A stretch of DNA of 10,544 nucleotides. It comes from a virus. Lineage: Duplodnaviria; Heunggongvirae; Uroviricota; Caudoviricetes. The notes beneath the pieces are model-generated. The model did not search any database. It was not told where the DNA came from and saw only the letters and a program-made list of their open reading frames with translations. The stretch covers positions 1 through 10,544 of IMG/VR virus record IMGVR_UViG_2579778804_000012, one strand, 5' to 3'. Shown one piece after another: positions 1-10,544 of the stretch. Position 1 is the first letter of the stretch. The number at the start of each line of letters is the position of its first letter. A program made the translations under genes and the position numbers.

Positions 1-1218
1 ATGAACAAACTGAGCGATACCTTGCTAAGGAAACTTCATGGTAAGCCAGCGGAGAAAAACACGTTTTATAGCGATGGCGGAAATCTGAGCGTGAAATATT
101 TAACATCAGGGAAATTAACCTGGTATTTCACTTACAGGGCAGGAACGGGAAGAGAGACACGACCGGAACGTATTAAGCTGGGAAATTATCCTGATCTGAG
201 CCTGAAAGCAGCCAGGGAAAAAGCCGCCCAGTGTCGCGCATGGCTGGCGGAGGGGAAAAATCCACGCCATGAGATGAATTACGCCGTACAGGAAGCGTTA
301 AAGCCGGTAACGGTTGGCGATGCGCTCACCTACTGGCTTGAGTCGTACGTAAAGGAAAACCGCGTGGATTATATCGCCCTGAAAAGGCGACTTAATAATC
401 ACGTAATACAGTACATTGGCGCTATGCCGCTGGATAAATGCGAGCTACGGCACTGGCTGGCCTGTTTTGACCAGGTGGCAAAGCGAACACCTGTTACTGC
501 CGGATTCGTGCTACAGACATGCAAGCAGGCGCTTAAGTTCTGCCGGAGGCGGCGCTTTGCAATCAGCAACGTTCTCGATGATCTGAACGTGGCGGACGTT
601 GGGAAAAAACCGGATATAAGCGAACGTGTCTTAAGCACCAAAGAACTGGGCGAGTTATTGCAGGCGCTGGATAAAAAAATATTTTCTCCTTACTACGTCG
701 CGTTAATCCGCCTCCTGATTGTCTTCGGAGCCAGGACGGTAGAACTGAGGTTATCGGAGATCAGCGAGTGGGATTTTACCGAAATGCTATGGACCGTTCC
801 GAAGGAGCACAGCAAAACGAAGGTTGCAATATTCCGGCCCATACCGGAAGCGATCCTGCCGTTCGTCACGCGGCTGGTGGACCAGAACAGGCACACGGGC
901 TTATTACTGGGGGAAGTGAAACAGGAGGCTAGCGTATCGCAGTACGGCAGATTAGCGCACAGGAGGCTAAAACACCCTCAATGGTCATTGCATGACATCC
1001 GGCGCACCTTTACAACCATGCTGAACGATTTAGGCGTTGATCCTCACGTCGTGGAGCAGCTTACAGGCCACCAGATGCCAGGAATGCAACGCGTGTACAA
1101 CCATTCCCGCTATATTGATGCGAAACGCAATGCGCTTGATATGTGGGTGGAGCGGTTGGAGATACTGGCGGGAACACATGAAAACGTAACCACGCTACCA
1201 GTAACCAGAATAAAATAA
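1..1218 (+). CDS. int: tyrosine integrase, P4-type (N-terminal arm-binding-like domain plus catalytic domain)
   Basis: 405-aa ORF. N-terminus LSDTLLRKL..GKPAEK..YSDGGNLSVKY..W.F.YR...LGNYPDLSLKAAREKA matches the P4-family integrase N-terminal pattern; C-terminus HDIRRTF....GHQMPGMQRVYNHSRY fits the H-x-x-R and catalytic Tyr region. Window begins exactly at its ATG. Confidence 0.9.
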   Translation: MNKLSDTLLRKLHGKPAEKNTFYSDGGNLSVKYLTSGKLTWYFTYRAGTGRETRPERIKLGNYPDLSLKAAREKAAQCRAWLAEGKNPRHEMNYAVQEALKPVTVGDALTYWLESYVKENRVDYIALKRRLNNHVIQYIGAMPLDKCELRHWLACFDQVAKRTPVTAGFVLQTCKQALKFCRRRRFAISNVLDDLNVADVGKKPDISERVLSTKELGELLQALDKKIFSPYYVALIRLLIVFGARTVELRLSEISEWDFTEMLWTVPKEHSKTKVAIFRPIPEAILPFVTRLVDQNRHTGLLLGEVKQEASVSQYGRLAHRRLKHPQWSLHDIRRTFTTMLNDLGVDPHVVEQLTGHQMPGMQRVYNHSRYIDAKRNALDMWVERLEILAGTHENVTTLPVTRIK

Positions 1219-1235
1219 TTTTTTTCGTGTTTTTT

Positions 1236-1251
1236 CAGTATGCGCATACTG
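1236..1251. promoter_or_regulatory. perfect 16-bp palindrome CAGTATGCGCATACTG just after the int stop; candidate protein-binding site or hairpin
   Basis: Self-complementary 16-mer read directly; preceded by a T-run (1221-1235). Confidence 0.4.
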
Positions 1252-1260
1252 GATAAGTGC

Positions 1261-1310
1261 ACAGATACAACGTGAAACAATGTGCAACAACGTGACACAA
1301 TCACGAACAA
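1261..1310. repeat. five tandem 10-bp phased units (acagatACAA cgtgaaACAA tgtgcaACAA cgtgacACAA tcacgaACAA); candidate DNA-binding array
   Basis: Exact 10-bp periodicity with invariant ACAA ends and GTGA/GTGC cores, read directly. Confidence 0.6.
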
Positions 1311-1401
1311 GAGGCCAAAAAGAATACAGATTTGTAAGCTACTGATTTTTAATGCTCAGCTGGTTTTTTATACATTAGTGAATTACGCGTTAAAGTGTGC
1401 G

Positions 1402-1438
1402 AAAAAAGGCATAAAACAAGATTTTATGCCTTTGTATT
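1402..1438. terminator. hairpin terminator candidate between int and alpA (stem GGCATAAAA/TTTTATGCC, A-run before, T-rich after)
   Basis: 9-bp perfect inverted repeat 1408-1416/1422-1430, loop caaga, followed by tttgtatt. Confidence 0.5.
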
Positions 1439-1592
1439 AACATGAATTTAAATGATTTTATCCTGATTATTCCTCTTTCTGTAAACCATGCGACACCAAC
1501 ATTTGCCAACTCTGAATCATCCTGACACAATCAGACACATCCCAACGCAATAGAACACGAAATAACTCTTTAAGAAACGAAAGGGGGCAATA

Positions 1593-1781
1593 GTGTTAAG
1601 CACTGATCGGTTTATACGTGAAAAAGAATGCGAAAAGCTAACAGGCCTTAGCCGCTCATGCCGCTACCGCCTGGAAAAGGCCGGACAATTCCCATCACGT
1701 CGTAAACTTGGTGGGCGTTCTGTTGGCTGGTCTTTATCTGAGGTTTTGGCCTGGAAGGATAGCTGCAAGGCAGTTCACTAA
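1593..1781 (+). CDS. alpA: AlpA-family transcriptional regulator / possible excisionase (GTG start)
   Basis: 62-aa ORF; LTGLSRSCRYRLEKAGQFPSRRKLGGRSVGWSLSEVLAWK matches the AlpA signature (TG.SR...Y......FP..RKLG.RSVGW...E...W). RBS AAGGGGG at 1581-1587. Confidence 0.8.
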   Translation: MLSTDRFIREKECEKLTGLSRSCRYRLEKAGQFPSRRKLGGRSVGWSLSEVLAWKDSCKAVH

Positions 1782-1920
1782 AAAGACTGGCGGCACACAG
1801 TCGCCACACATCCACTAATACAGAGATATAACTATGAAGATTGAATATGCGCCCGAACGTGGGCGGGGATTCGTTCGCCCTGGTGAAACTGAAAAACAAC
1901 AAAATTGGGGTTTTTCAGGC

Positions 1921-1950
1921 ATAAAAAAAGCGGCCCCGATATGGAGCCGC
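1921..1950 (-). terminator. candidate intrinsic terminator for the minus-strand small-gene operon (stem GCGGC/GCCGC, U-run on minus strand)
   Basis: Stem 1930-1934/1946-1950 with 11-nt loop; on the minus strand it is followed by the complement of the A-run at 1922-1929. About 75 nt below the stop of the 2025..2228 gene. Confidence 0.4.
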
Positions 1951-2024
1951 CTTTCTGAACAATTAACCTGCTGCGCCTTATGTGTATGTGATCCCAAACA
2001 TAAGCACGGGAATGATAGCCGCTA

Positions 2025-2228
2025 TCAGGCTGGTGGGCAATTACCTTGCTTGTTGGGGCCGTATTGTGCTGCCATTTTCATCCGTTCAGAACGTGAATAT
2101 TTTTTTAGAAACTCATCAAGGACAAAAGCGCATGGAGCGAATCTTTCTGATTCATGCTCGAGCGCCATATTTTCGTGCTCTCTGTTCGTTTTTTGCGATG
2201 GTGTATTGGTTGATTCTTTGTTGGTCAT
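2025..2228 (-). CDS. small acidic protein of unknown function (67 aa), paralog of the 2686..2913 gene
   Basis: Starts MTN.., shares FVLDEFLKKY with FALEDFVDKY in the paralog; identical 43-bp upstream element; RBS AGGT 8 nt upstream. Confidence 0.5.
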   Translation of the reverse strand: MTNKESTNTPSQKTNREHENMALEHESERFAPCAFVLDEFLKKYSRSERMKMAAQYGPNKQGNCPPA

Positions 2229-2237
2229 TGTGTGTAC

Positions 2238-2280
2238 CTGTAAAGCAATGCGCCGGAGTTCCTCACGCCACGGCGCTGAT
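2238..2280. repeat. 43-bp element, copy a (100% identical to 2923-2965), intergenic upstream of the MTN-type gene
   Basis: ctgtaaagcaatgcgccggagttcctcacgccacggcgctgat read identically at both sites; contains inverted repeat GCGCCG..CGGCGC. Confidence 0.9.
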
Positions 2281-2285
2281 GTTTT

Positions 2286-2465
2286 TTATTCTTTGGGTTC
2301 AATACCGCGTTGCTGTAATTCTTTTCGGATTATTCGTTTTATCCAAGCTGCTAAAGAGTCATCACCGTCTTGTTGTTGTGCTTTTTCCATCTTTTCCCGT
2401 AAGTCAGGATCTAAACGGAACTGGAAAGGAGGATTACCACGCCTTTCATTTTTGTGTGTTGACAC
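2286..2465 (-). CDS. Arc/MetJ-type ribbon-helix-helix DNA-binding protein candidate (59 aa from GTG; 34 aa if ATG at 2390)
   Basis: Minus-strand translation ..RRGNPPFQFRLDPDLREKMEKAQQQDGDDSLAAWIKRIIRKELQQRGIEPKE fits the Arc-like strand-helix-helix pattern; RBS GGGGTG 8 nt upstream of the GTG. Absent from the supplied ORF track (non-ATG start, under 60 aa). Confidence 0.45.
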   Translation of the reverse strand: MSTHKNERRGNPPFQFRLDPDLREKMEKAQQQDGDDSLAAWIKRIIRKELQQRGIEPKE

Positions 2466-2486
2466 GTCAATTACACCCCATATAAT
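2459..2486 (+). promoter_or_regulatory. consensus sigma70-type promoter: TTGACA (2459-2464), 16-bp spacer, TATAAT (2481-2486)
   Basis: Both hexamers are perfect consensus with near-optimal spacing; it overlaps the start region of the minus-strand Arc-like gene. Confidence 0.55.
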
Positions 2487-2492
2487 GTGTTT

Positions 2493-2508
2493 ATGTGTAT
2501 ATACACAT
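2493..2508. promoter_or_regulatory. perfect 16-bp palindrome ATGTGTATATACACAT immediately downstream of the -10; candidate operator
   Basis: Self-complementary 16-mer read directly, at about +1 to +20 of the promoter above. Confidence 0.5.
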
Positions 2509-2530
2509 TACACACAACTAGCACAAAAAA

Positions 2531-2599
2531 CAACGCCCCGCAGTGATGGGAACACATACGGGGCGTCTAACCAAACCATTAATTGAGGTAACGATTATG
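2531..2599. ncRNA. structured element copy 1: 7-bp GC stem CGCCCCG/CGGGGCG with 18-nt loop, conserved tail TCTAACCAAACC, RBS and ATG GCT; leader RNA on plus strand and/or terminator on minus strand
   Basis: Stem 2534-2540/2559-2565. On the minus strand it is followed by TTGTTTTTTGTG (terminator-like). On the plus strand it precedes GAGG, then ATG at 2597. Homologous to 3398-3466. Confidence 0.4.
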
Positions 2600-2685
2600 G
2601 CTATAAAAGAGCATAGCTTACTCTTTATACACACACAAACGCCCCGGAAACGGAATAATCCGTTTCATAGTTCGGTTTTGTGCAC

Positions 2686-2913
2686 TCATCCTGGCGGTCG
2701 GTTTTTGCCGGATTTAAGCCGCCGTGGGTATTTATCGACAAAATCTTCAAGGGCAAATTTTTCTGGTGGCACTAAGCGCGGCGCTGGTGGTGGTATTTTT
2801 GTTCTGGTTAGTTCTTCCTCAAGTCTGGCGCAGGCTTCTGACTGCCTTTGCCGGATGATTTCATCATCTTGCGTTTGCGTGTCTTGTATTGGTGATAGTG
2901 TGTTGTTGGTCAT
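2686..2913 (-). CDS. small acidic/proline-rich protein of unknown function (75 aa), paralog of the 2025..2228 gene
   Basis: Starts MTNN.., contains FALEDFVDKY; preceded by the 43-bp element copy b. Confidence 0.55.
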   Translation of the reverse strand: MTNNTLSPIQDTQTQDDEIIRQRQSEACARLEEELTRTKIPPPAPRLVPPEKFALEDFVDKYPRRLKSGKNRPPG

Positions 2914-2922
2914 GTTACTGCC

Positions 2923-2965
2923 CTGTAAAGCAATGCGCCGGAGTTCCTCACGCCACGGCGCTGAT
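2923..2965. repeat. 43-bp element, copy b (100% identical to 2238-2280)
   Basis: Identical 43-mer between the RHH gene stop (2971) and the downstream gene start (2913). Confidence 0.9.
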
Positions 2966-2970
2966 AGTGA

Positions 2971-3277
2971 TTATTCTGATTCTTTGGCCTTGCGGCGCTG
3001 GAGTTCTTCGCGTGCGATGGCGATAAGTTGCCCGAGTTCTTCCGTAGCTTTAATACCAATTTTTTCCACTTGCGCCAATGCATCGAGAGAAGAAATCAGA
3101 GGATTTTCACTGCTTCCTTCTGCCTGGCGGCGGGCGATCTCCCCGCGCATGGCGGTTACTATGAATCCGGCGTTGCTTTCGCCGTCCAGTTTTACGGATT
3201 CCATGCCATCAAAAGCATCATGTGGGATACGAATTGAAATCTGTTTTGATTTGTCGTTGATAGTGTTTTTTGCCATG
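2971..3277 (-). CDS. ribbon-helix-helix (Arc/CopG-like) DNA-binding protein candidate, 101 aa from the MAKNT start
   Basis: KQISIRIPHDAFDGMESVKLDGESNAGFIVTAMRGEIARRQ fits the RHH pattern. Start moved from the track ATG at 3315 to the ATG at 3277, which sits 6 nt after RBS AGGAGA. C-terminus resembles the Arc-like paralog (IAREELQRRKAKESE vs IRKELQQRGIEPKE). Confidence 0.6.
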
Positions 3278-3298
3278 TGCATTCTCCTAAACAAAAGA

Positions 3299-3376
3299 TG
3301 TGATTCAGTATACACAAAAAAGAATCACAAAAAACACTTGACCTGTGATTCAGTTGAATTTAATTTAAATCACACC
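3299..3376. promoter_or_regulatory. operator-like cluster: TGTGATTCAGT direct repeats (3299-3309, 3344-3354) plus inverted half-sites GAATCACA (3322-3329) and AATCACAC (3368-3375); weak candidate promoter TTGACC at 3338-3343
   Basis: Repeated motif in both orientations in the divergent region between the RHH gene and the Icd-like gene. Confidence 0.4.
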
Positions 3377-3397
3377 TCAGTAAGAGGATGTAAACGA

Positions 3398-3463
3398 CAA
3401 CGCCCCGAACTGTTTGCGGCAGTAGCGGGGCGTCTAACCAAACCGTTAACAGGAGTAACGATT
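3398..3463 (+). ncRNA. structured leader copy 2: stem CGCCCCG/CGGGGCG (3401-3407/3426-3432), 18-nt loop, tail TCTAACCAAACC, RBS AGGAG, then ATG GCT; candidate c4/CI-like regulatory RNA or 5'-UTR element
   Basis: Same stem, tail and RBS/start block as copy 1 but a different loop; no U-run on the minus strand, so a plus-strand role is favoured here. Confidence 0.4.
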
Positions 3464-3664
3464 ATGGCTGGAACACAGCATACCCCACGTCTGGCGCACA
3501 CACAAACTGCCTTTGTGTGGCGTTTTCTGGCCCTGAGTGCCGGAGAATCTCAAATCATCCACGTAACCGCCTGGACGGAACGCGAAGCGCGTAACCGTTG
3601 CCCGTCCGGTTGTGTTGCTGTATTCGCTGCCCGTATTCGCCAGGGGGAAACCTATGCACAATAA
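3464..3664 (+). CDS. small protein (66 aa) in the position of Icd-like (host cell division inhibitor-like) proteins of P4-type elements; identity tentative
   Basis: MAGTQHTPRLAHTQTAFVWRFLALSAGESQ...; good RBS; follows the structured leader. The first 15 aa are homologous to the truncated start at 2597 (MAIKEHSLLFIHTQT). Confidence 0.5.
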   Translation: MAGTQHTPRLAHTQTAFVWRFLALSAGESQIIHVTAWTEREARNRCPSGCVAVFAARIRQGETYAQ

Positions 3665-3884
3665 AACCACACCGGACGCAGCAGAAGAAGCAATGCAAAT
3701 ACTGATACGTGCGCTCGTTGATGTTACCCACATGGTGGAGAGCATGGAGAGAAAATCACAGTCGGAGCACGACAAAAGAAAACTTAAAACAATAAAAATA
3801 ATTGCCAAAAACTCGCTGATAAAAGTTACAGACATCCTTAATGAGGACATTAAAAGAATAAGGGAGAAAATTTGTGATGCATAA
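3654..3884 (+). CDS. hypothetical small protein (76 aa), AT-rich gene
   Basis: ATG at 3654 with RBS AGGGGG 6 nt upstream; overlaps the Icd-like stop; lysine-rich, low GC. Confidence 0.5.
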   Translation: MHNKTTPDAAEEAMQILIRALVDVTHMVESMERKSQSEHDKRKLKTIKIIAKNSLIKVTDILNEDIKRIREKICDA

Positions 3885-4104
3885 AATCCCTTTTGAAGTA
3901 TTAATCCACTCTGAAAACGCATTAATTAAAGCACGCGAAATGAATGCGTTGTTAATTAAATTAATTGAAGTGCCGGAAGGTGGTGAAGAATCAGGTGTAT
4001 TAATGTTTGCAGCCATTCAGACATTACTATCGCCTGTTATTGATGAACTGGATAAGGCAATGGCAATTCACGAGAATAATAACTCGCCCCACACCGGAGA
4101 ATAA
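3874..4104 (+). CDS. hypothetical small protein (about 75 aa), AT-rich gene
   Basis: GTG 3874 / ATG 3877 after RBS AAGGGAG; start overlaps the stop of the previous gene. Confidence 0.5.
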   Translation: MMHKIPFEVLIHSENALIKAREMNALLIKLIEVPEGGEESGVLMFAAIQTLLSPVIDELDKAMAIHENNNSPHTGE

Positions 4105-4109
4105 AAATA

Positions 4110-4409
4110 ATGAAACTTAAATATTCTGGCTTAACTGCCAGTGGCAACACTCACCCTAAATTTACGCGCGGTGATATTTACCGCGACCAGTACGGCGGCA
4201 CGGTAATGATTAAGGGCGTGGCGGGACGGTGCGTAACTTACCGCCGTGAAGGTTACGAATATGATTGCGTGATGCCTGTTTATCAGTTCCGGCGTGATTT
4301 TTCTCTGGTACAGACCGCGCCGCATAACGTGCCCACCAGCAACGCCAGGGCACGGGCAAACATCCAGAAGCTGAAAACCATGATTAACGGATTCAGGGGT
4401 AAAAAATGA
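4110..4409 (+). CDS. hypothetical protein (99 aa), translationally coupled to the helicase gene
   Basis: RBS GGAGA 9 nt upstream; its stop overlaps the helicase ATG (ATGA). Confidence 0.6.
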   Translation: MKLKYSGLTASGNTHPKFTRGDIYRDQYGGTVMIKGVAGRCVTYRREGYEYDCVMPVYQFRRDFSLVQTAPHNVPTSNARARANIQKLKTMINGFRGKK

Positions 4410-5815
4410 AACTGGCACCGAACGTAAAACTATTACCGAAAGACAAATACACCGATGCGATTATTTTTGCGGGTATTGATGCTCACTCATTCGCAGAGCA
4501 TTACATCATTGCACAGGCCAAAAAAGCAGGCGATCCAGTCCCTCCCGTTTATCTGGGGCGTTATCAGTTAAGCGAACTGGATAACCTCCAGATTGTTGAT
4601 GATGGGCGATACAGGGCGACGGTGATACGCGCCGGAAATATTGAAGAGCCGCAGCTGTTAACCATCGCCACGAAACTGGCGATCGCCGGAGTCCAGGAGG
4701 CGCGGCTACTTTCTGAAAATTTCGAATTGCTGGAGGAATGGAGCGACCAGCTTCCACGGCTTAGGGAGGCATGGGAACGCGGGGAAAGCCTGGTCATGAA
4801 AAAAATCCCCCAGCGAAAAACCACGCTACCGATGAGCGTTGGATCTACCGGATACGACACACAGCTTGATTACGTGGTAAAGGGGATTATTCCGGCATCG
4901 TCGCTTTGCAGCATATACGGGGCGAGCGGTTCCTATAAATCATTCCTTGCCGGATCGTGGGCGTGTCACGTTTCCACGGGCCGCCAGTGGGGAGGCCGCA
5001 GGGTGGCGCATGGCGCTGTTCTCTATGTGGTTGGTGAAGGCGGTATCGGCGTTCCGCGTCGTGTAAAAGCCTGGGAGGTTGTGCACGGTGAGCAGGTGAA
5101 AAATCTGTATCTGGTAAACCGTCCCATCTTTCCGGCGGTCCCGCTTGATGTTGATGAAATGGTTATCGCTGCCCGTCAGGTGGAGCGGGAAACGGGTAAA
5201 CCTGTACGCATGATTATTCTGGATACGCTGGCGCGTTGCTTTGGTGGGAATGATGAAAATGATTCCCGTGATATGGGGGCGTTTATCCGTGGTTGTGACG
5301 AACTGAAACGACGCACAGGGGCCACGGTGCTGGTGGTTCACCATTCCGGCAAGGATGAGACGAAAGGCGCGCGCGGTTCCAGTGCATTTCGTGCATCACT
5401 GGATGCTGAATACCGGATACGCAGGGAGGACGCAGGAAGCGAAGCGCTGGTTATCTCATGCACCAAAATGAAGGACGCGGAGGAACTCAAAGAAGCCGCA
5501 TATGACTTACGCGTGGTGGAGCTGTTTACCGACGCTGACGGGGAGTTAATCACGTCGCTGGTGGTGGTGGATAAGCCGCGCCCTCCCGTTGAACTGGAAC
5601 GCATCGAGGAGGCAGGCAACAAGACGGAAAACCATACCGCACTATGGGGGTGCATCCGTTCACGCACACAGAACGGCGACAAGTGCACGATCCCGCTGTT
5701 ACGTGATGACATGAAACGGCTTGGGTATGACGTGAAAAATATGCGGCGATGGTTAGCCAAACTGGAAAAAGACGCCGTGATTTACATTGATGGTGATGAT
5801 GTAGGACCACTGTAA
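4406..5815 (+). CDS. RepA-like replicative helicase / RecA-fold AAA ATPase with C-terminal DNA-binding region
   Basis: 469 aa; Walker A GASGSYKS, Walker B-like VRMIILDTLAR, then VLVVHHSGKD; an iteron array lies immediately downstream. Confidence 0.85.
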   Translation: MKLAPNVKLLPKDKYTDAIIFAGIDAHSFAEHYIIAQAKKAGDPVPPVYLGRYQLSELDNLQIVDDGRYRATVIRAGNIEEPQLLTIATKLAIAGVQEARLLSENFELLEEWSDQLPRLREAWERGESLVMKKIPQRKTTLPMSVGSTGYDTQLDYVVKGIIPASSLCSIYGASGSYKSFLAGSWACHVSTGRQWGGRRVAHGAVLYVVGEGGIGVPRRVKAWEVVHGEQVKNLYLVNRPIFPAVPLDVDEMVIAARQVERETGKPVRMIILDTLARCFGGNDENDSRDMGAFIRGCDELKRRTGATVLVVHHSGKDETKGARGSSAFRASLDAEYRIRREDAGSEALVISCTKMKDAEELKEAAYDLRVVELFTDADGELITSLVVVDKPRPPVELERIEEAGNKTENHTALWGCIRSRTQNGDKCTIPLLRDDMKRLGYDVKNMRRWLAKLEKDAVIYIDGDDVGPL

Positions 5816-6015
5816 AAAGTGAGTAGCAAAAGTGAGTAATGGTGAGGTTTTTACAAAATATTAACACGATTACTCACTTTCTCACCTGTATACATGCTCA
5901 AAAGTGAGGAGTAAAAAAATCCTTATGAAACACACACATAAAGCATCAAAAAATATCAAGTGAGACGAAGCGAGACGCTTTAAAAAGTGAGGTGTAAAAG
6001 TGAGCATGAGTGAGG
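5816..6015. repeat. iteron array, putative replication origin: at least 9 copies of (A)AGTGAG in both orientations with AT-rich spacers
   Basis: GTGAG at 5819, 5832, 5842, 5904, 5960, 5987, 6000, 6010; inverted CTCAC at 5874 and 5881; AT-rich stretches 5850-5870 and 5911-5957. Confidence 0.6.
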
Positions 6016-6269
6016 AGATAACCAAAATGCGCAGAGACAGAACAGAGCCGAAATATAAAGCGTTAGACATGACAGAGCACGCCTTAAAGGTGGCAATCAG
6101 GGTAATAGACCGCCACGCGGGGGAAGGATACGCGAAGGAGCATCCCGAACTGATAAGCGCATTCATGACCACAGCGGCGGCAAACTTTGCCACGCTGACA
6201 GAGCGGGAGATTGCGGAAGCTGAACAGGTGACAACCATCAACGTTAAAAACGTAGAGGTGGAATCATGA
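6000..6269 (+). CDS. hypothetical protein (about 87-89 aa)
   Basis: GTG 6000 or ATG 6006 after GAGG; its stop overlaps the ssb-like start. Confidence 0.55.
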   Translation: MSMSEEITKMRRDRTEPKYKALDMTEHALKVAIRVIDRHAGEGYAKEHPELISAFMTTAAANFATLTEREIAEAEQVTTINVKNVEVES

Positions 6270-6688
6270 CAGCACAGATAGCGGCTTACGGGCGGCTGGT
6301 GGCTGACCCACAGTTAAAGACCACCAGCAAGGGCACACAAATGACGATGGCGAGTATGGCTGTCCCCCTGCCGTGCAGCCAGGCAGATGACGGAACGGCT
6401 ACGATGTGGTTATCCGTCCTGGCGTTTGGCAGACAGGCCGACGCACTGGCAAAACACCGCAAAGGCGAGCTGGTGAGCGTGGCGGGTAACATGCAGGTAA
6501 GCCAGTGGACAGGCCAGAACGGCGAAACGCGGCAGGGCTGGCAGGTTATCGCAGACAGCGTAATCAGTGCGAGAACGGCGCGACCGGGCGGCAAAAAAGG
6601 CCAGCAGGGGCAGGCTACTGACGCACTGAACAGGGCAAAACAACAGGCGGGGAATGATGATCCGTACGGGGATAACATACCGTTTTAA
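6266..6688 (+). CDS. ssb: single-stranded DNA-binding protein (SSB-like, short form)
   Basis: 140 aa; N-terminal OB-fold-like region, Gly/Gln-rich linker, and C-terminal acidic tip DDPYGDNIPF resembling the SSB D-I-P-F tail. Confidence 0.7.
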   Translation: MTAQIAAYGRLVADPQLKTTSKGTQMTMASMAVPLPCSQADDGTATMWLSVLAFGRQADALAKHRKGELVSVAGNMQVSQWTGQNGETRQGWQVIADSVISARTARPGGKKGQQGQATDALNRAKQQAGNDDPYGDNIPF

Positions 6689-6702
6689 GCAACGAGTGAC
6701 AG

Positions 6703-6727
6703 AAGCCGGAGAAATCCGGCTTTTTTG
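6703..6727 (+). terminator. rho-independent terminator after ssb (GCCGGA gaaa TCCGGC + TTTTTT)
   Basis: 6-bp GC stem, 4-nt loop, 6-T run, read directly. Confidence 0.7.
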
Positions 6728-6732
6728 TAGGT

Positions 6733-6880
6733 ACTCCTGGTGGGGGTGCCTGTCCACGGGGCGGCGGGGCGCGGAAAAAGGCGCATTTTTTGATTTTTAT
6801 GGCACCATCACCACCACTATAAGTTATTGATATATTGAGGAATAAAAATTTTTAGTGTCGAATCAGGTTGTTTTTTGTTC
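6733..6880. repeat. ~150-bp element, copy A: GC-rich core CTCCTGGTGGGGGTGCCTGTCCACGGGGCGGCGGGGCGCGGAAAAAGGCGCATTTTTT, His-codon-like CATCACCACCAC tract, ending GGTTGTTTTTTGTTC
   Basis: Aligns block by block with 9270-9420; both copies sit immediately after an intrinsic terminator. Confidence 0.7.
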
Positions 6881-7154
6881 ATCACTGGAGCGTTCCCGAA
6901 AGCATTTACAAAAAAACAGGCGCAAAAAAAGCGCCCCCGATTGCTGTTACCGGAGGCGCTTTTACACGACAAAGGAGTTTTTATCGCCAGGATGACGAGT
7001 CTTAATATTGCTTCAATAGCAAAAATGCGTCAATGGCTTTGCCTCTCTGAGAATAATCAGAAAAATCATAATCTGATTTTATGGTAGAAAATGATTTATC
7101 TATTACTTTTGTCGATCAATAATGATGCCCGTTAATCAAAACGGAGGCGGATTT

Positions 7155-7349
7155 ATGCCAGAGAACAACACCAGAAAGCCGGATAAAAGTGCCACGGTAC
7201 ACATAGACGCCGGAACTATGGAGAAGATCGAACGCTATCAGCAGTTCATCAAAGATAATCACCCGGGTATGCCAGTGCCCACGAAAGGACAAATCACACG
7301 CAGCGCGGTTGAATACTGGTACAGGGCAACGTTAGGAGCCTGGCTATGA
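7155..7349 (+). CDS. small protein (64 aa), possible RHH-type regulator, translationally coupled to the capsid gene
   Basis: ATG 7155 is 7 nt after RBS GGAGG (the track ORF starts earlier at 7122); its stop overlaps the ATG at 7346. Confidence 0.5.
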   Translation: MPENNTRKPDKSATVHIDAGTMEKIERYQQFIKDNHPGMPVPTKGQITRSAVEYWYRATLGAWL

Positions 7350-9235
7350 AAACATGGTTTTCCATTAAGGCTATGGCAGATGTTGTACATGTGCGCATTT
7401 ATGACGAGATCGGCGGGTACGGTGTAAAGGCATCGGCACTTACTGACGAGATCAACGCGTGCGGTAATGTGTCTGAAATCCATCTGAGCATTCATTCACC
7501 TGGTGGCGACATCTTTGAAGGGCTGGCTATCTATAACGCTCTGAAAAATCATCCGGCAAAAAAAATCGTACACATTGAAGGCATGGCGGCTTCTATGGCG
7601 TCGTTTATTGCCATGTGTGGAGATCACATCGTTATGCCTGAAAACGCGATGATGATGATACATGCCCCCCGTGGTGTTACTGCCGGAGTGTCGGGCGACG
7701 TTCGCCGCTTTGCTGATCTGATGGACAAGCTGGGCGACACGATGGCAGAAACCTATGCCGGAAGAACGGGCAGGAGCAAACAGGAGATCACCTCCATGAT
7801 GGAGGCGGAAACCTGGATGGATGGCAATGAGTGTAAGGCTAACGGCTTCGCAGATGAGGTTATACCCGCGATTACAGCAATGGCCCGAATTGAATCAAAA
7901 CGAATCGGAGATTTTTCAAATATGCCGGAAAAAATTAAAAGCATGATCAGCCAGAAAACTGGCAGTGGCGAACAGGAACGACTTAACGGAATCCGTGAAT
8001 TGTTTGGCACCTTCAACGGAAGATATAACGACCTGGCTATAAGTTGTCTTGCGGATTCAGAATGTAGCGTTGAGAATGCACGCGAACGCCTTTTACTCGC
8101 TATGGGTAAAGAATCAACGCCAACAAACAAAACCACCCCCGCAAATCTTTACTACGCGTACACGGATAACGGCAATATAACCGGCGATGCCATGCGTCAG
8201 GGGCTTAATGCGCGTCTTGGTCACGAACGGGCCGAACGCGGTAATCCTTACGCCATGATGAGCCTTTTCGATATGGCACAGGCATCATTAACCCATCGTG
8301 GTATAAGCACGGGCAGCTACAGCACACGCTCGCAGATAGTAAACGCGGCATTCACCCACAGCAGCAGCGATTTTACCGATATCCTTGCTGGTGGCGCTGA
8401 AAAATCAGTGCTTGCAGGCTGGGAGCACAGCGGCGAAACATTCCGCCAGTGGACGAAAAAAGGTTCCCTTTCAAACTTCCGGGAAGCCCGCCGCGTTGGT
8501 ATGAATGGCTTCTCAACGTTAAACAAAGTGCCGGAAGGGGCAGAATATAAATACATCACCACCAGCGATCGCGGTGAACCCATCGCGCTGGCTACTTACG
8601 GGAATATTTTCAGCATTACCCGCCAGGCGATAATCAATGATGACCTTGATCAGTTATCAACGGTGCCAATGGCTATGGGCCGTGCAGCATCAAGAACGGT
8701 GGGAAATCTGGTTAATCTGGTGCTTACAGGCAACGTAAAACTTTCTGACGGAATAGCGCTGTTTGACAAAAAACACAGCAACCTGATTGAAGCAGGACTG
8801 ACAACACCGGGACTTAGTGCAGCACGTCACCTGATGCGCACACAGAAGGACAAAAATGGCGAAGTGCTGAATATTGCGCCTAAATTCCTTTTAGTTCCGG
8901 CAGCACTGGAAGATCGCGCGTTGCAGATGATTAACTCAACCGCACCTTTCGGGGCTGATAAAAACAGCGGGATCTTTAACCCGTATCACAAGCTACTTGA
9001 TATCATCGTCGATCCCCGCCTTGATGATATCAGCGAAAAACAATGGTACATGCTTTCCGCACAGGGAACGGACACAATCGAGGTGGCTTATCTTGATGGC
9101 AATGACGAACCTTACCTTGAACAGCAGGAAGGCTTTATCGTTGACGGCGTGGCCTGGAAAGTCCGTATTGATGCAGGTGTGGCAGCTCTGGATTATCGCG
9201 GTATGGTCAAATCAGGCGGTACCGATTCACTATGA
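7346..9235 (+). CDS. prohead protease (ClpP/S14-like) fused to a probable major capsid protein, with a scaffold-like linker
   Basis: 629 aa; N-terminal 170 aa IHSPGGDIFEGLAIYNALKNH...HIEGMAASMASFIAMCGDHIVMPENAMMMIHAP matches the phage ClpP-like head-maturation protease pattern; the C-terminal ~400 aa is inferred to be capsid from size and context, not from a recognised motif. Confidence 0.75.
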   Translation: MKTWFSIKAMADVVHVRIYDEIGGYGVKASALTDEINACGNVSEIHLSIHSPGGDIFEGLAIYNALKNHPAKKIVHIEGMAASMASFIAMCGDHIVMPENAMMMIHAPRGVTAGVSGDVRRFADLMDKLGDTMAETYAGRTGRSKQEITSMMEAETWMDGNECKANGFADEVIPAITAMARIESKRIGDFSNMPEKIKSMISQKTGSGEQERLNGIRELFGTFNGRYNDLAISCLADSECSVENARERLLLAMGKESTPTNKTTPANLYYAYTDNGNITGDAMRQGLNARLGHERAERGNPYAMMSLFDMAQASLTHRGISTGSYSTRSQIVNAAFTHSSSDFTDILAGGAEKSVLAGWEHSGETFRQWTKKGSLSNFREARRVGMNGFSTLNKVPEGAEYKYITTSDRGEPIALATYGNIFSITRQAIINDDLDQLSTVPMAMGRAASRTVGNLVNLVLTGNVKLSDGIALFDKKHSNLIEAGLTTPGLSAARHLMRTQKDKNGEVLNIAPKFLLVPAALEDRALQMINSTAPFGADKNSGIFNPYHKLLDIIVDPRLDDISEKQWYMLSAQGTDTIEVAYLDGNDEPYLEQQEGFIVDGVAWKVRIDAGVAALDYRGMVKSGGTDSL

Positions 9236-9240
9236 CAACA

Positions 9241-9264
9241 AGGCGGCACCAGCCGCCTTTTTTG
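9241..9264 (+). terminator. rho-independent terminator after the capsid gene (GGCGGC acca GCCGCC + TTTTTT)
   Basis: 6-bp GC stem, 4-nt loop, 6-T run. Confidence 0.7.
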
Positions 9265-9269
9265 CGGGT

Positions 9270-9420
9270 CCTCCTGGTGGGGTGGGCCTGAACACGGGGC
9301 GGGCGGCGCGGAAAAAAGCGCATTTTTGTGATTTTATCGTCATCATCATCATGTGTGTAACCTATTGTTTTTAATGTGGTTGATGCAAAAAAGATGATGA
9401 AGAAGGTTATTTTTTGTTCG
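9270..9420. repeat. ~150-bp element, copy B (homolog of 6733-6880)
   Basis: CTCCTGGTGGGGTGGGCCTGAACACGGGGCGGGCGGCGCGGAAAAAAGCGCATTTTTG, then CATCATCATCAT, then GGTTATTTTTTGTTCG. Confidence 0.7.
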
Positions 9421-9492
9421 ACATCTTTTAGCGTGACAGATTCTTTACAAAAAATCTGAGCTTGTTTTCTTCACCAGCGCGATGGGGGCACA

Positions 9493-9774
9493 ATGACAGA
9501 AGCCGAAATACTGGGATTAATCCGCCGCGTCGCCGGAATCAGCCAGCAGGTTGACGAACAGGCCACGCAGCCGGACAGCATGACCGCAGATAATTATGTG
9601 CGTGTAGTGGTGGAGGTGATGCGCGGTGATGGTATCCAGCTTAATGATGTGGATATGCGCAACATACGAACCAGAGTCCTTGAGTTGCTGGCATACCGTC
9701 GCCGCGTGGAGATGTATCGGGAGAAGGAGAAAATCACGTACCACTGGAAGAAGCCGGAGCGGTTACGGCGGTAA
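9493..9774 (+). CDS. hypothetical protein (93 aa), downstream of the capsid gene
   Basis: ATG with GGGGG 4 nt upstream; charged, arginine-rich C-terminus; function not recognisable. Confidence 0.55.
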   Translation: MTEAEILGLIRRVAGISQQVDEQATQPDSMTADNYVRVVVEVMRGDGIQLNDVDMRNIRTRVLELLAYRRRVEMYREKEKITYHWKKPERLRR

Positions 9775-9888
9775 CTTGTTGATTAAAAGGCGGCTCAATT
9801 CTGAGCTGGGTAGCTGACGGCGGTAACTGTTTTATATTCCCGATAGCGCAAAAATGCGCGGTCGGGCAGAATGACCACCACCTCAATC

Positions 9889-9930
9889 GTGACGGAGAGT
9901 GACAACCAGTGACACACCGTGACAAAAAGA
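9889..9930. repeat. four tandem 10-bp phased GTGAC units (GTGACggaga GTGACaacca GTGACacacc GTGACaaaaa)
   Basis: Exact 10-bp phasing read directly; same motif family as the 1261-1310 array. Confidence 0.6.
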
Positions 9931-9975
9931 CGGTTTAACCGTTCATTAAAAATCGACGTGATTTTGTGCTATCAG

Positions 9976-10000
9976 GATGACGTGGCCAACGTCATTTTTT
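9976..10000 (+). terminator. intrinsic terminator candidate (GATGACGT ggcca ACGTCAT + T-run)
   Basis: 7-8-bp stem followed by TTTTTT at 9995-10000. Confidence 0.5.
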
Positions 10001-10391
10001 AGCGAAAAATTCTGATTAAGGTCACTGGCTGAATGGTCATAATGACCACGCAGACCATCGAGGCAACCATAGCGATCATCGTTACGGTTGGAGCTTTTCC
10101 GCCATTGGTGGAAAAGGTGCACATCTGGATCATCATTACGGTGATCAAGGGTATGTAAAACCCACCAGCCTGATTAAATGTTAACCGGAAAAAAAATCCG
10201 GTAGCCCCGTTATGGGAATCCCCATATCGACAGCAACGCCCCCTTAAAATTACCCGCCTTTATATTTCTTGTGCCTATTTGTTCCACGTTGTTTCATACA
10301 GTGCGCCGAACGGTGTAGTCACTGGTGTAGTTATTTTGAGTTTTTTTGCACTTCGGGCTTAATTGAAAATATAATTAAATCAATATGTTAT

Positions 10392-10544
10392 TCAAAATAG
10401 GTTATATATAACAGCAATAAATAATGCGAGAATAAACGGCACGATGATCTCGGCGGCAAAACGGATACCGCAGAGAATAATGACCAGCATTCCCAACATA
10501 ATGACGATTTTTAGGCCATTGAGCGTGATGATCGGCTTTGCCAT
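10392..10544 (-). pseudogene. 5' fragment of a membrane transporter gene (51 codons, 46-aa hydrophobic N-terminus); TqsA/PerM-like from memory, unverified
   Basis: Minus-strand ATG at the window edge encodes [46 protein letters not shown], then YNLF and a stop at 10392-10394; far shorter than a full transporter. Confidence 0.45.

Follow-up and report, generated by a model that had tools for sequence, protein, structure and literature searches.

Two predicted lambda-type cos sites with different cosB types flank the capsid gene of an Escherichia coli phage satellite

The 10,544-nt stretch of IMG/VR record IMGVR_UViG_2579778804_000012 analysed here (positions 1 to 10,544, hereafter the window) is, as a whole, a complete satellite island of about 10.4 kb of the phage-inducible chromosomal island (PICI) type, and it contains two copies of a repeated element of about 190 bp, A (6703-6917) and B (9240-9456), on either side of its capsid gene. 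We propose, with good though not full confidence, that A and B are two complete lambda-type cos sites (cosQ-cosN-cosB), each with a cosB keyed to a different class of terminase small subunit (TerS), and that helper phages of either class could start packaging of the island. Copy A appears to fit the class of phages 1720a-02 and CP-1639, which includes the Stx2a prophage resident in the same host, and copy B that of VT1-Sakai and the Stx2 phages; most likely, each copy would let a different helper class start packaging. The proposal draws on homology, on the anatomy of the sites, on the match between cosB and TerS types and on co-residence with a matching prophage. That PICIs of E. coli carry cos sites is established; what is new is the arrangement, namely an island lacking rpp with two full phage-type cos sites, whose cosB arrays match two natural TerS specificities.

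Both copies match the cos interval of lambdoid phages

The preliminary description of the window had reported both copies, each behind an intrinsic terminator. Both were found where it had placed them, with a similarity slightly longer than noted then, and the two copies finish with a common TTTACAAAAAA. The repeat search of the window returned three co-linear blocks (D7, D8 and D9) at a constant offset of 2537-2539 nt; alignment of A with B gave 76% column identity with MAFFT and, with BLASTN, one match of 82% over 100 nt (E 5e-23) and a second of 86% over 21 nt. The two + strand terminators (Table 1) were established by folding and are not listed by the promoter/terminator scan.

When phage genomes were searched, copy A showed 90% identity over 167 nt to 1720a-02 and CP-1639 (E 9e-57), whereas its similarity to Stx2 phages and VT1-Sakai was confined to its first half. 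The opposite preference was found for copy B, which is 86-87% identical over about 200 nt to VT1-Sakai and eight Stx2 phages and resembles 1720a-02 in its first half only. In all matching phages the homologous sequence is the non-coding interval that runs from the last lysis gene (Rz) to terS-terL and then the portal gene, a placement seen in 1720a-02, CP-1639, VT1-Sakai, Stx2_112808, phi458, Fels-1 and the resident prophage. It is in this lysis-to-terminase interval that lambdoid phages keep cos. The TerL proteins of the matching phages, like gpA of lambda, possess both a GpA ATPase and a GpA nuclease domain, and their TerS proteins belong to DUF1441/phrog_141 ("terminase small subunit"). In a joint alignment with lambda, the cosQ GGGTCCT and the end-junction ACG/GGGCGG (here and below, slashes mark physical ends or predicted nicks) share columns with the two copies and with the phages. 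The best phage homologues of the island capsid gene (51-52% amino acid identity, 99% coverage) are, moreover, the same phages whose cos matches the copies. With 86-90% identity to the phage Rz-terS interval and the cosQ-cosN-cosB anatomy detailed below, the cos-like packaging site, one of the options put forward in the preliminary description, is strongly supported.

Anatomy of the two sites

The predicted elements are collected in Table 1, and their conservation was evaluated on phage and island sequences, 10 of type A and 19 unique ones of type B. Across this set the functional blocks are invariant or carry isolated single changes; variation is found in the centre of cosN, in four central bases of the site for integration host factor (IHF) and in the spacers between the R elements, and homology stops just after R1.

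A lambda-like cosQ, that is the 7-bp GGGTCCT about 20 nt upstream of cosN, is present exactly in copy B and as a variant in copy A. The variant AGGTACT is also found in the Salmonella phage Fels-1, and four related islands (L014, L019, L032 and L039) have GGGTCCT in its place. A search for GGGTCCT-N19-22-ACGGGGCGG, which joins cosQ to cosN, gave a single match in the window, at copy B with a spacing of N21, and 0 hits in 200 shuffles. A hairpin with a T-run directly before cosQ is also a feature of phage cos sites (lambda 48450-48470, GATGATAATCATTATCAC; 1720a-02, L004 3482-3505, ATGATAACCATTATCATTTTT, -8.5 kcal/mol); its place is taken in the islands by a terminator hairpin rich in GC, fused to cosQ at an equal distance. 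The hairpin of copy A also precedes cos1 of EcCICFT073 (L011), the prototype E. coli PICI, with identical 22-24 nt at L011 13504-13525 and 11231-11254.

The cosN of copy A aligns to the physical end of lambda, ...TTACG/GGGCGGCGACCT/CGCGG, the lambda record ending in ...GGTTACG and starting with GGGCGGCGACCT. The string ACGGGGCGGCG (6756-6766) matches 11/11 across this end. The identity to the lambda cohesive-end junction that the preliminary description had noted therefore stands, but the direct match taken alone is at chance level; the likeness to cos owes its significance to the intermediate phage sequences and to the joint pattern of cosQ, spacer and cosN. A search for the 12-mer cohesive end of lambda that allowed up to 3 mismatches gave no match at the copies, because an indel and the diverged right half exceed 3. 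The left half GGGCGG with its flanking CG is invariant in 10/10 type-A sequences, CACG/GGGCGG is shared without change by both copies and by every homologue from phages and islands, and copy B from the T-run through cosN is identical to 1720a-02 and to the resident Stx2a prophage. According to the rule described for cosN, the left half and the CG flanks are conserved and a variable right half is tolerated (PMC4669245). As regards the right-hand CG flank, a 12-nt end fits copy B, and copy A is ambiguous. The mEp460_4F5 record was considered for evidence on the physical end, but its start, a break 5 nt upstream of the predicted nick, is only a weak hint and was set aside as not decisive. The length of the cosN centre varies by 1-2 nt among phages and islands, with 10, 11 or 12 nt between ACG and CGCGG (compared at 6759-6774 and 9297-9311 of the window and in the same columns of L004, L006 and L013-L016). 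Because of this variation, the predicted cohesive-end length or right nick position cannot be equal in all members.

In both copies cosB is laid out as R3(+), IHF site, R2(-) and R1(+), with R3 starting 44-45 bp from the predicted left end. Lambda-like cosB has the order R3-I1-R2-R1 with R2 opposite to R3 and R1 (PMC9026076; also PMC4669245), and R3 lies at bp 50-65 in lambda and at bp 48-60 in N15 (PMC9026076). R3, R2 and R1 switch jointly between the types, with a core ..CAC(T) in A and ..CATC(T) in B, the R3 of type A being swapped for TCATCATCATCAT in type B. Among the 10 type-A sequences R2 hardly varies, the resident prophage having a single substitution, and the similarity of copy A to 1720a-02 stops at R1, about 25 nt before the terS start codon of that phage. 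The type-B R3 is conserved in the 19 unique sequences except in L039 (3-nt deletion at the 5' edge) and in one Stx2 phage (last base). In the IHF-like site of type B the flanks TAA and TTG are invariant and the four central bases variable, as expected if this is an IHF site in copy B.

Table 1. Positions of the predicted cos elements and adjoining features in the window
Feature	Position	Strand	Remarks
Terminator hairpin and T-run ahead of copy A, after the SSB gene	6703..6726	+	fold -15.8 kcal/mol, z -4.2
cosQ position, copy A, AGGTACT	6729..6735	+	variant of GGGTCCT; aligned to lambda/phage cosQ
cosN, copy A, CACG/GGGCGGCGGGG..CGCGG	6755..6774	+	predicted top-strand nick after 6758
A-tract/T-tract spacer, copy A, lambda I2 position	6775..6802	+	nearly invariant across both cos types and phages; I2 by position only
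R3-like predicted TerS-binding element, type A, CACCATCACCACCAC	6803..6817	+	bp 45-59 from predicted left end; invariant in type A
IHF site (I1 equivalent), copy A, TATCAATAACTTA	6820..6832	-	perfect WATCAANNNNTTR consensus; between R3 and R2, as in lambda cosB (PMC9026076)
R2-like, type A, TAGTGTCGAA (+ strand), TTCGACACTA (- strand)	6853..6862	-	inverted relative to R3 and R1
R1-like, type A, TTCATCACTGG	6878..6888	+	multiple alignment
TTTACAAAAAAAC, last block common to A and B	6905..6917	+	in VT1-Sakai-type phages upstream of terS
75-aa ORF, phrog_4934	7122..7349	+	overlaps capsid gene start; not annotated by PGAP
ClpP-like prohead protease/major capsid protein fusion gene	7346..9235	+	Pfam CLP_protease and Phage_capsid_4; cos copies either side
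Terminator hairpin and T-run ahead of copy B, after the capsid gene	9240..9263	+	fold -15.1 kcal/mol, z -2.1
cosQ, copy B, GGGTCCT	9266..9272	+	identical to lambda cosQ; 21 nt before ACGGGGCGG
cosN, copy B, CACG/GGGCGGGCGGCG/CGG	9293..9311	+	permits 12-nt end with CG on both sides
A-tract/T-tract spacer, copy B, I2 position	9312..9339	+	alignment
R3-like, type B, TCATCATCATCATG	9340..9353	+	bp 44-57 from predicted left end
IHF-like site, copy B, AAACAATAGGTTA	9358..9370	-	one mismatch to consensus
R2-like, type B, GATGATGA (+ strand), TCATCATC (- strand)	9391..9402	-	core AAAAAGATGATG invariant in 19 type-B sequences
R1-like, type B, TTCGACATCTTT	9417..9428	+	conserved in 18/19 type-B sequences (one G-to-A, L066); homology decays right after
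TTTACAAAAAATC, end of copy B	9444..9456	+	A/B alignment
93-aa ORF, phrog_1561	9493..9774	+	adjoins last cos site downstream, across PICI family

cosB type and the TerS DNA-binding domain

The two phage classes differ in TerS in a corresponding manner. The N-terminal 66 amino acids, the part that forms a winged-helix DNA-binding domain, are 52% identical between the classes, and the C-terminal 92 or so residues, the part that in lambda holds TerL, are 96% identical. Phages outside these pairs separate the two parts: mEp460 and phi458 combine a ...GGHESNLKLYR... DNA-binding domain with a type-A cosB, as does 1720a-02, with a C-terminal part only 54% identical to that of 1720a-02, and Fels-1 combines an ...APGSNEKxKLYLL... 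domain with a type-B cosB, as does VT1-Sakai, with a C-terminal part only 51% identical. It can be deduced from these sequences that the type of DNA-binding domain tracks the type of cosB and not the remainder of TerS. The situation of lambda versus 21 recurs in this other phage lineage, and the island carries one cos of each kind. A rule linking cosB type to the type of TerS DNA-binding domain would make it possible to predict satellite-helper pairs from genomes.

Candidate helpers and proposed mechanism

Probes made of cosB and the 5' end of terS found matches in 226 (type A) and 402 (type B) of 5426 complete E. coli genomes. The window is 100% identical to E. coli 89-3156 (NZ_CP027366.1), where the island interrupts tqsA, and this strain is among the best matches of the type-A probe. 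Its Stx2a prophage (L099, NZ_CP027366.1 2916150-2928490) carries an Rz-like lysis gene, cos, a DUF1441 terS, a GpA terL, a portal gene and a ClpP/major capsid protein (MCP) fusion 51% identical to the island capsid gene. Its TerS protein is identical to that of 1720a-02 and its type-A cosB and TerS are 99.7% identical to that phage; its cosB is of the copy-A type (90% over 168 nt) and its cosQ-cosN equals that of copy B base for base. In strain 2012C-4431, a 95%-identical island is also co-resident with a type-A Stx2a-like prophage. The Stx2a prophage of 89-3156 can be considered a candidate resident helper, and Shiga-toxin phages are likely helpers of the island.

We hypothesise that induction of a helper from the Stx/VT1/mEp460 lineage would be followed by excision of the island and its replication into concatemers, on which the helper's DUF1441-family TerS and IHF would bind the R3-I1-R2-R1 array of the cognate cosB. 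The cosB-bound complex would then position the GpA-family TerL, cosN would be nicked, and the DNA would be packaged rightward (+ direction) until a later downstream cosQ-cosN is cut in the full head; four island units (41.5 kb) correspond to about 90% of a 46-kb helper genome. Either helper class would initiate at its own copy, with TerL, cosN and cosQ shared, and an Rpp-type specificity switch, of which the island encodes none, would not be needed. In this scheme the actual cleavage, packaging and use of two helpers are predictions from sequence. Should the two sites each serve their own helper class, this would explain why PICIs carry several cos sites and would identify Shiga-toxin-converting phages as the helpers that mobilise these islands.

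Several observations weigh against the proposal of two working sites with separate specificities. Copy A has the variant cosQ AGGTACT in the window, its cosN centre is one base longer than in the closest phage, and a 12-nt end cut from it would lack the conserved CG flank. The ends of A and B would differ in sequence and perhaps in length, and an A-to-B molecule would consequently have imperfectly matching ends; two-base end mismatches cost only about four-fold in lambda/N15 hybrids (PMC4669245). The covariation between A and B represents only two or three independent lineages. Finally, the direct match to lambda is not above chance (local score 22, compared with 22.4 +/- 2.1 for shuffled queries). 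The Smith-Waterman comparison of lambda cos with the window, whose best match is copy A, was consequently discarded as independent statistical evidence.

Alternative explanations

Another explanation, which we regard as unlikely, is that one copy is a working cos and the other a relic of modular recombination, cos marking the borders of capsid-module exchange between phages and islands. It would account for the fixed slots that cos occupies in related islands, flanking alternative capsid modules (the ClpP-MCP fusion or gpE/gpD homologues), and for the mosaic nature of the copies, copy A being composed of a Fels-1-like cosQ and left cosN, a 1720a-like cosB and a VT1-like TTTACAAAAAAAC end. It also agrees with the deletion of cos2 in EcCICFT073, which left transfer by lambda or phi80 unreduced (PMC6092414). 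However, every functional block (cosQ, the left half of cosN, R3, I1, R2 and R1) is intact in both copies, and across the 8 islands with A and B these blocks are invariant or nearly so while the spacers drift, from which selection on both copies can be surmised. In EcCICFT073, furthermore, both sites were functional when cloned (PMC6092414).

A division of labour with a single helper, in which A would start packaging and B would finish it or would interfere with the helper as a decoy, seems to us more doubtful still. The resident Stx2a prophage does share its cosB with copy A and its exact cosQ-cosN with copy B, and lambda-like termination needs cosQ and cosN and is blind to the type of cosB (PMC4669245). 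Against this, copy A has a canonical cosQ in the relatives L014, L019, L032 and L039, and A-to-B molecules would be mismatched at their ends and would not be whole island multiples. The cosB of copy B is, in addition, fully conserved and matches the widespread TerS class detected by the type-B probe (402/5426 E. coli genomes).

By far the least probable explanation is a regulatory one, in which DNA or RNA signals (helper-activated late promoters or anti-termination) would switch on the capsid gene and the 93-aa open reading frame (ORF) past the terminators: each copy does lie between a terminator and downstream genes, and RNAalifold paired R2 with R1 in a weak stem (-9.1 kcal/mol) in which 5 column pairs show compensatory changes from one type to the other, but the homologous phage sequence is the cos interval within an already anti-terminated late operon, and the EcCICFT073 cos beside the homologue of the 93-aa ORF is reversed, which a strand-specific transcription signal should not tolerate. 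An RNA-structure reading of cosB was rejected, given that the stem is only weak and that the covariation is equally expected from inverted protein-binding repeats; R3, which lies outside the stem, also changes with type. The late-promoter option of the preliminary description found no backing, the promoter scan listing no + strand sigma-70-like promoter in 6700-6920 or 9240-9460 and the P2/P4-type TGT-N12-ACA dyad being absent from both copies. Nor was support found for an anti-termination site: the scan of the whole window with Rfam 15 gave no match in or near either copy at E <= 1, and the only matches elsewhere were a sub-threshold one to BSnc120 at 1369-1447 and one to ctRNA at 6922-6963 (-).

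Comparison with EcCICFT073 and other systems

The window can be assigned, by its sequence, to PICI-type phage satellites related to EcCICFT073 (Fillol-Salom 2018, 2019), induction and transfer being predicted. The backbones of the two are syntenic, with shared segments at 81-91% DNA identity, and both have int, an alpA-like gene, DUF4222, SSB (single-stranded DNA-binding protein) and the 93-aa ORF. They also have in common more than one cos, a hairpin fused to cosQ, a capsid-gene homologue beside cos and a helper-like cosQ/cosN. In EcCICFT073, cos1 (+ strand) is followed by rppA and then by cos2, which is inverted and immediately precedes the homologue of the 93-aa ORF; lambda's GGGCGGCGACCT is present at both sites, and the identity of rppA is confirmed by a match to the RppC structure 6HLK. 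The cos1 of EcCICFT073 matches phages over cosQ-cosN only, and its cos2 reproduces a phage cos, including the cosB, at 93% identity over 179 nt. Both sites are experimentally functional (PMC6092414, PMC6739421); cos1 is Rpp-dependent, Rpp retargeting the helper TerS to a private cosB without I1, R2 and R1 (PMC6092414, PMC6739421, PMC9026076). The differences concern the type and disposition of the sites: EcCICFT073 has a lambda-type cosN, with cos1 and cos2 inverted and about 750 bp apart around rpp, whereas the two sites of the window are directly repeated at a distance of 2.5 kb, with the capsid gene between them, and have a full phage-type cosB each; the window has no rpp, and its cos family belongs to phages with a DUF1441 TerS. 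The combination typical of a Rpp-dependent PICI cos, a private cosB lacking the phage R elements and I1 together with an rpp gene, is seen at neither copy.

The lambda-like cos sites studied by the Feiss laboratory (lambda, 21, phi80, N15 and Gifsy-1) differ from A and B in the sequences of the R elements and in the TerS, which is Nu1 and not DUF1441; unlike phage cos, the copies sit in a satellite without downstream terminase genes, and the cosN centre varies by 1-2 nt in length. As in P4/P2 and SaPIbov5/phi12, a satellite without a TerS of its own mimics the packaging signal of its helper, and SaPIbov5, with Ccm, likewise combines the helper's cos with a capsid protein homologue that has diverged from the helper's (PMC6092414, PMC5052747, PMC8569155). 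Compared with P4 and SaPIbov5, the window has two tandem cos sites, different cosB specificities and another helper lineage. No description of dual-specificity cos arrays was found in the searchable literature, which misses most subscription journals.

Of the 86 sequences surveyed, 80 are relatives on viral contigs that the 93-aa ORF served to collect; a single locus on a genome contig, four loci from E. coli and the window make up the remainder. A scan of species-representative genomes with the 93-aa ORF gave one locus only. At least one cos of these types is present in 60 of the 86, and 45 of the 85 relatives have two or three. Several cos sites of differing types are the rule in this PICI family. 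The argument of the preliminary description that two copies are odd for a cos site and favour regulation is contradicted by this survey and by the two functional sites of EcCICFT073 mentioned above. All eight islands with A and B have the ClpP-MCP fusion, and all eight are devoid of a Rpp or Nu1-like gene. Islands with lambda-type cos have, in all but one case, gpE/gpD-type capsid genes and most also a Rpp or Nu1-like gene; in 12 of the lambda-type islands an extra type-B cos occupies the slot after SSB. A sister island at tqsA (L012, NZ_CP015240.1) has three sites: at 8339 a type-B site after SSB, at 10780 a lambda-type site ahead of a 180-aa gene of Nu1-like type, and at 11664(-) another lambda-type site, inverted, whose R3 (CCGTTCTTCTTC) resembles that of lambda.

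It can be hypothesised more broadly, at even chances in our estimate, that the cos sites of this PICI family form a series of specificity cassettes in which the cosB of each copy imitates that of a distinct lambdoid TerS class. In the relatives a type-B site is combined with a Rpp-type site and a native lambda-type site, with up to three sites per island. Were this the case, one satellite could be packaged by several unrelated helper classes.

Gene content of the island and minor features

The 76-nt repeats that flank the island are spaced 10,370 bp apart, which corresponds to the length of one island unit. Its genes comprise an integrase, an alpA-like helix-turn-helix/excisionase-type regulator (phrog_2790), an Icd-like protein, DUF4222, a RepA-family helicase and SSB, followed by copy A, the 75-aa ORF, the ClpP-protease/major-capsid fusion gene, copy B and the 93-aa ORF. 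This content is that of Gram-negative PICIs, with a size of about 10-15 kb, int, an alpA-type regulator, an own replication module, one capsid gene and no terminase. Searches of the window by tblastn with RppA, a Nu1-like protein and TerS proteins found no homologue of Rpp, Nu1-like proteins or TerS. The protease-capsid fusion, preceded by the 75-aa ORF, is the sole virion gene; EcCICFT073 has an unrelated 68-aa ORF in the equivalent place, ahead of a gpE-like capsid gene. The 93-aa ORF is 84% identical at the amino acid level to the EcCICFT073 ORF (L011 14374-14655) directly downstream of the inverted cos2, and its position after the last cos in both islands is independent of the orientation and type of that site.

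Between copy A and the capsid operon, the segment 6917-6965 contains a hairpin (GGCGCAAAAAAAGCGCC) listed by the scan as a minus-strand terminator and a longer stem-loop that ends in GGCGCTTTT; the Rfam match to ctRNA_p42d in this segment (minus strand, 6922-6963) is weak (E 0.29) and probably due to chance. Just 3' of the RepA-helicase gene, repeated units of the AAAGTGAG type at 5810-5858 and 5978-6026, accompanied by an inverted repeat (5829-5844/5865-5880), look like iterons of the replication origin of the island, PICI origins having been described as lying 3' of the replication-helicase gene. Three tandem 10-bp units (ACAACGTGAA, ACAATGTGCA and ACAACGTGAC) between int and the alpA-like gene, at 1267-1306, may be candidate binding sites for the Int arms or for the regulator. 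Two direct repeats lie among the small minus-strand genes (YlcI/YnfO-like), one of 75 nt (2218-2292 and 2903-2977, 85%) and one of 116 nt (2525-2640 and 3392-3507, 72%), which suggests a duplicated unit of a gene plus its leader.

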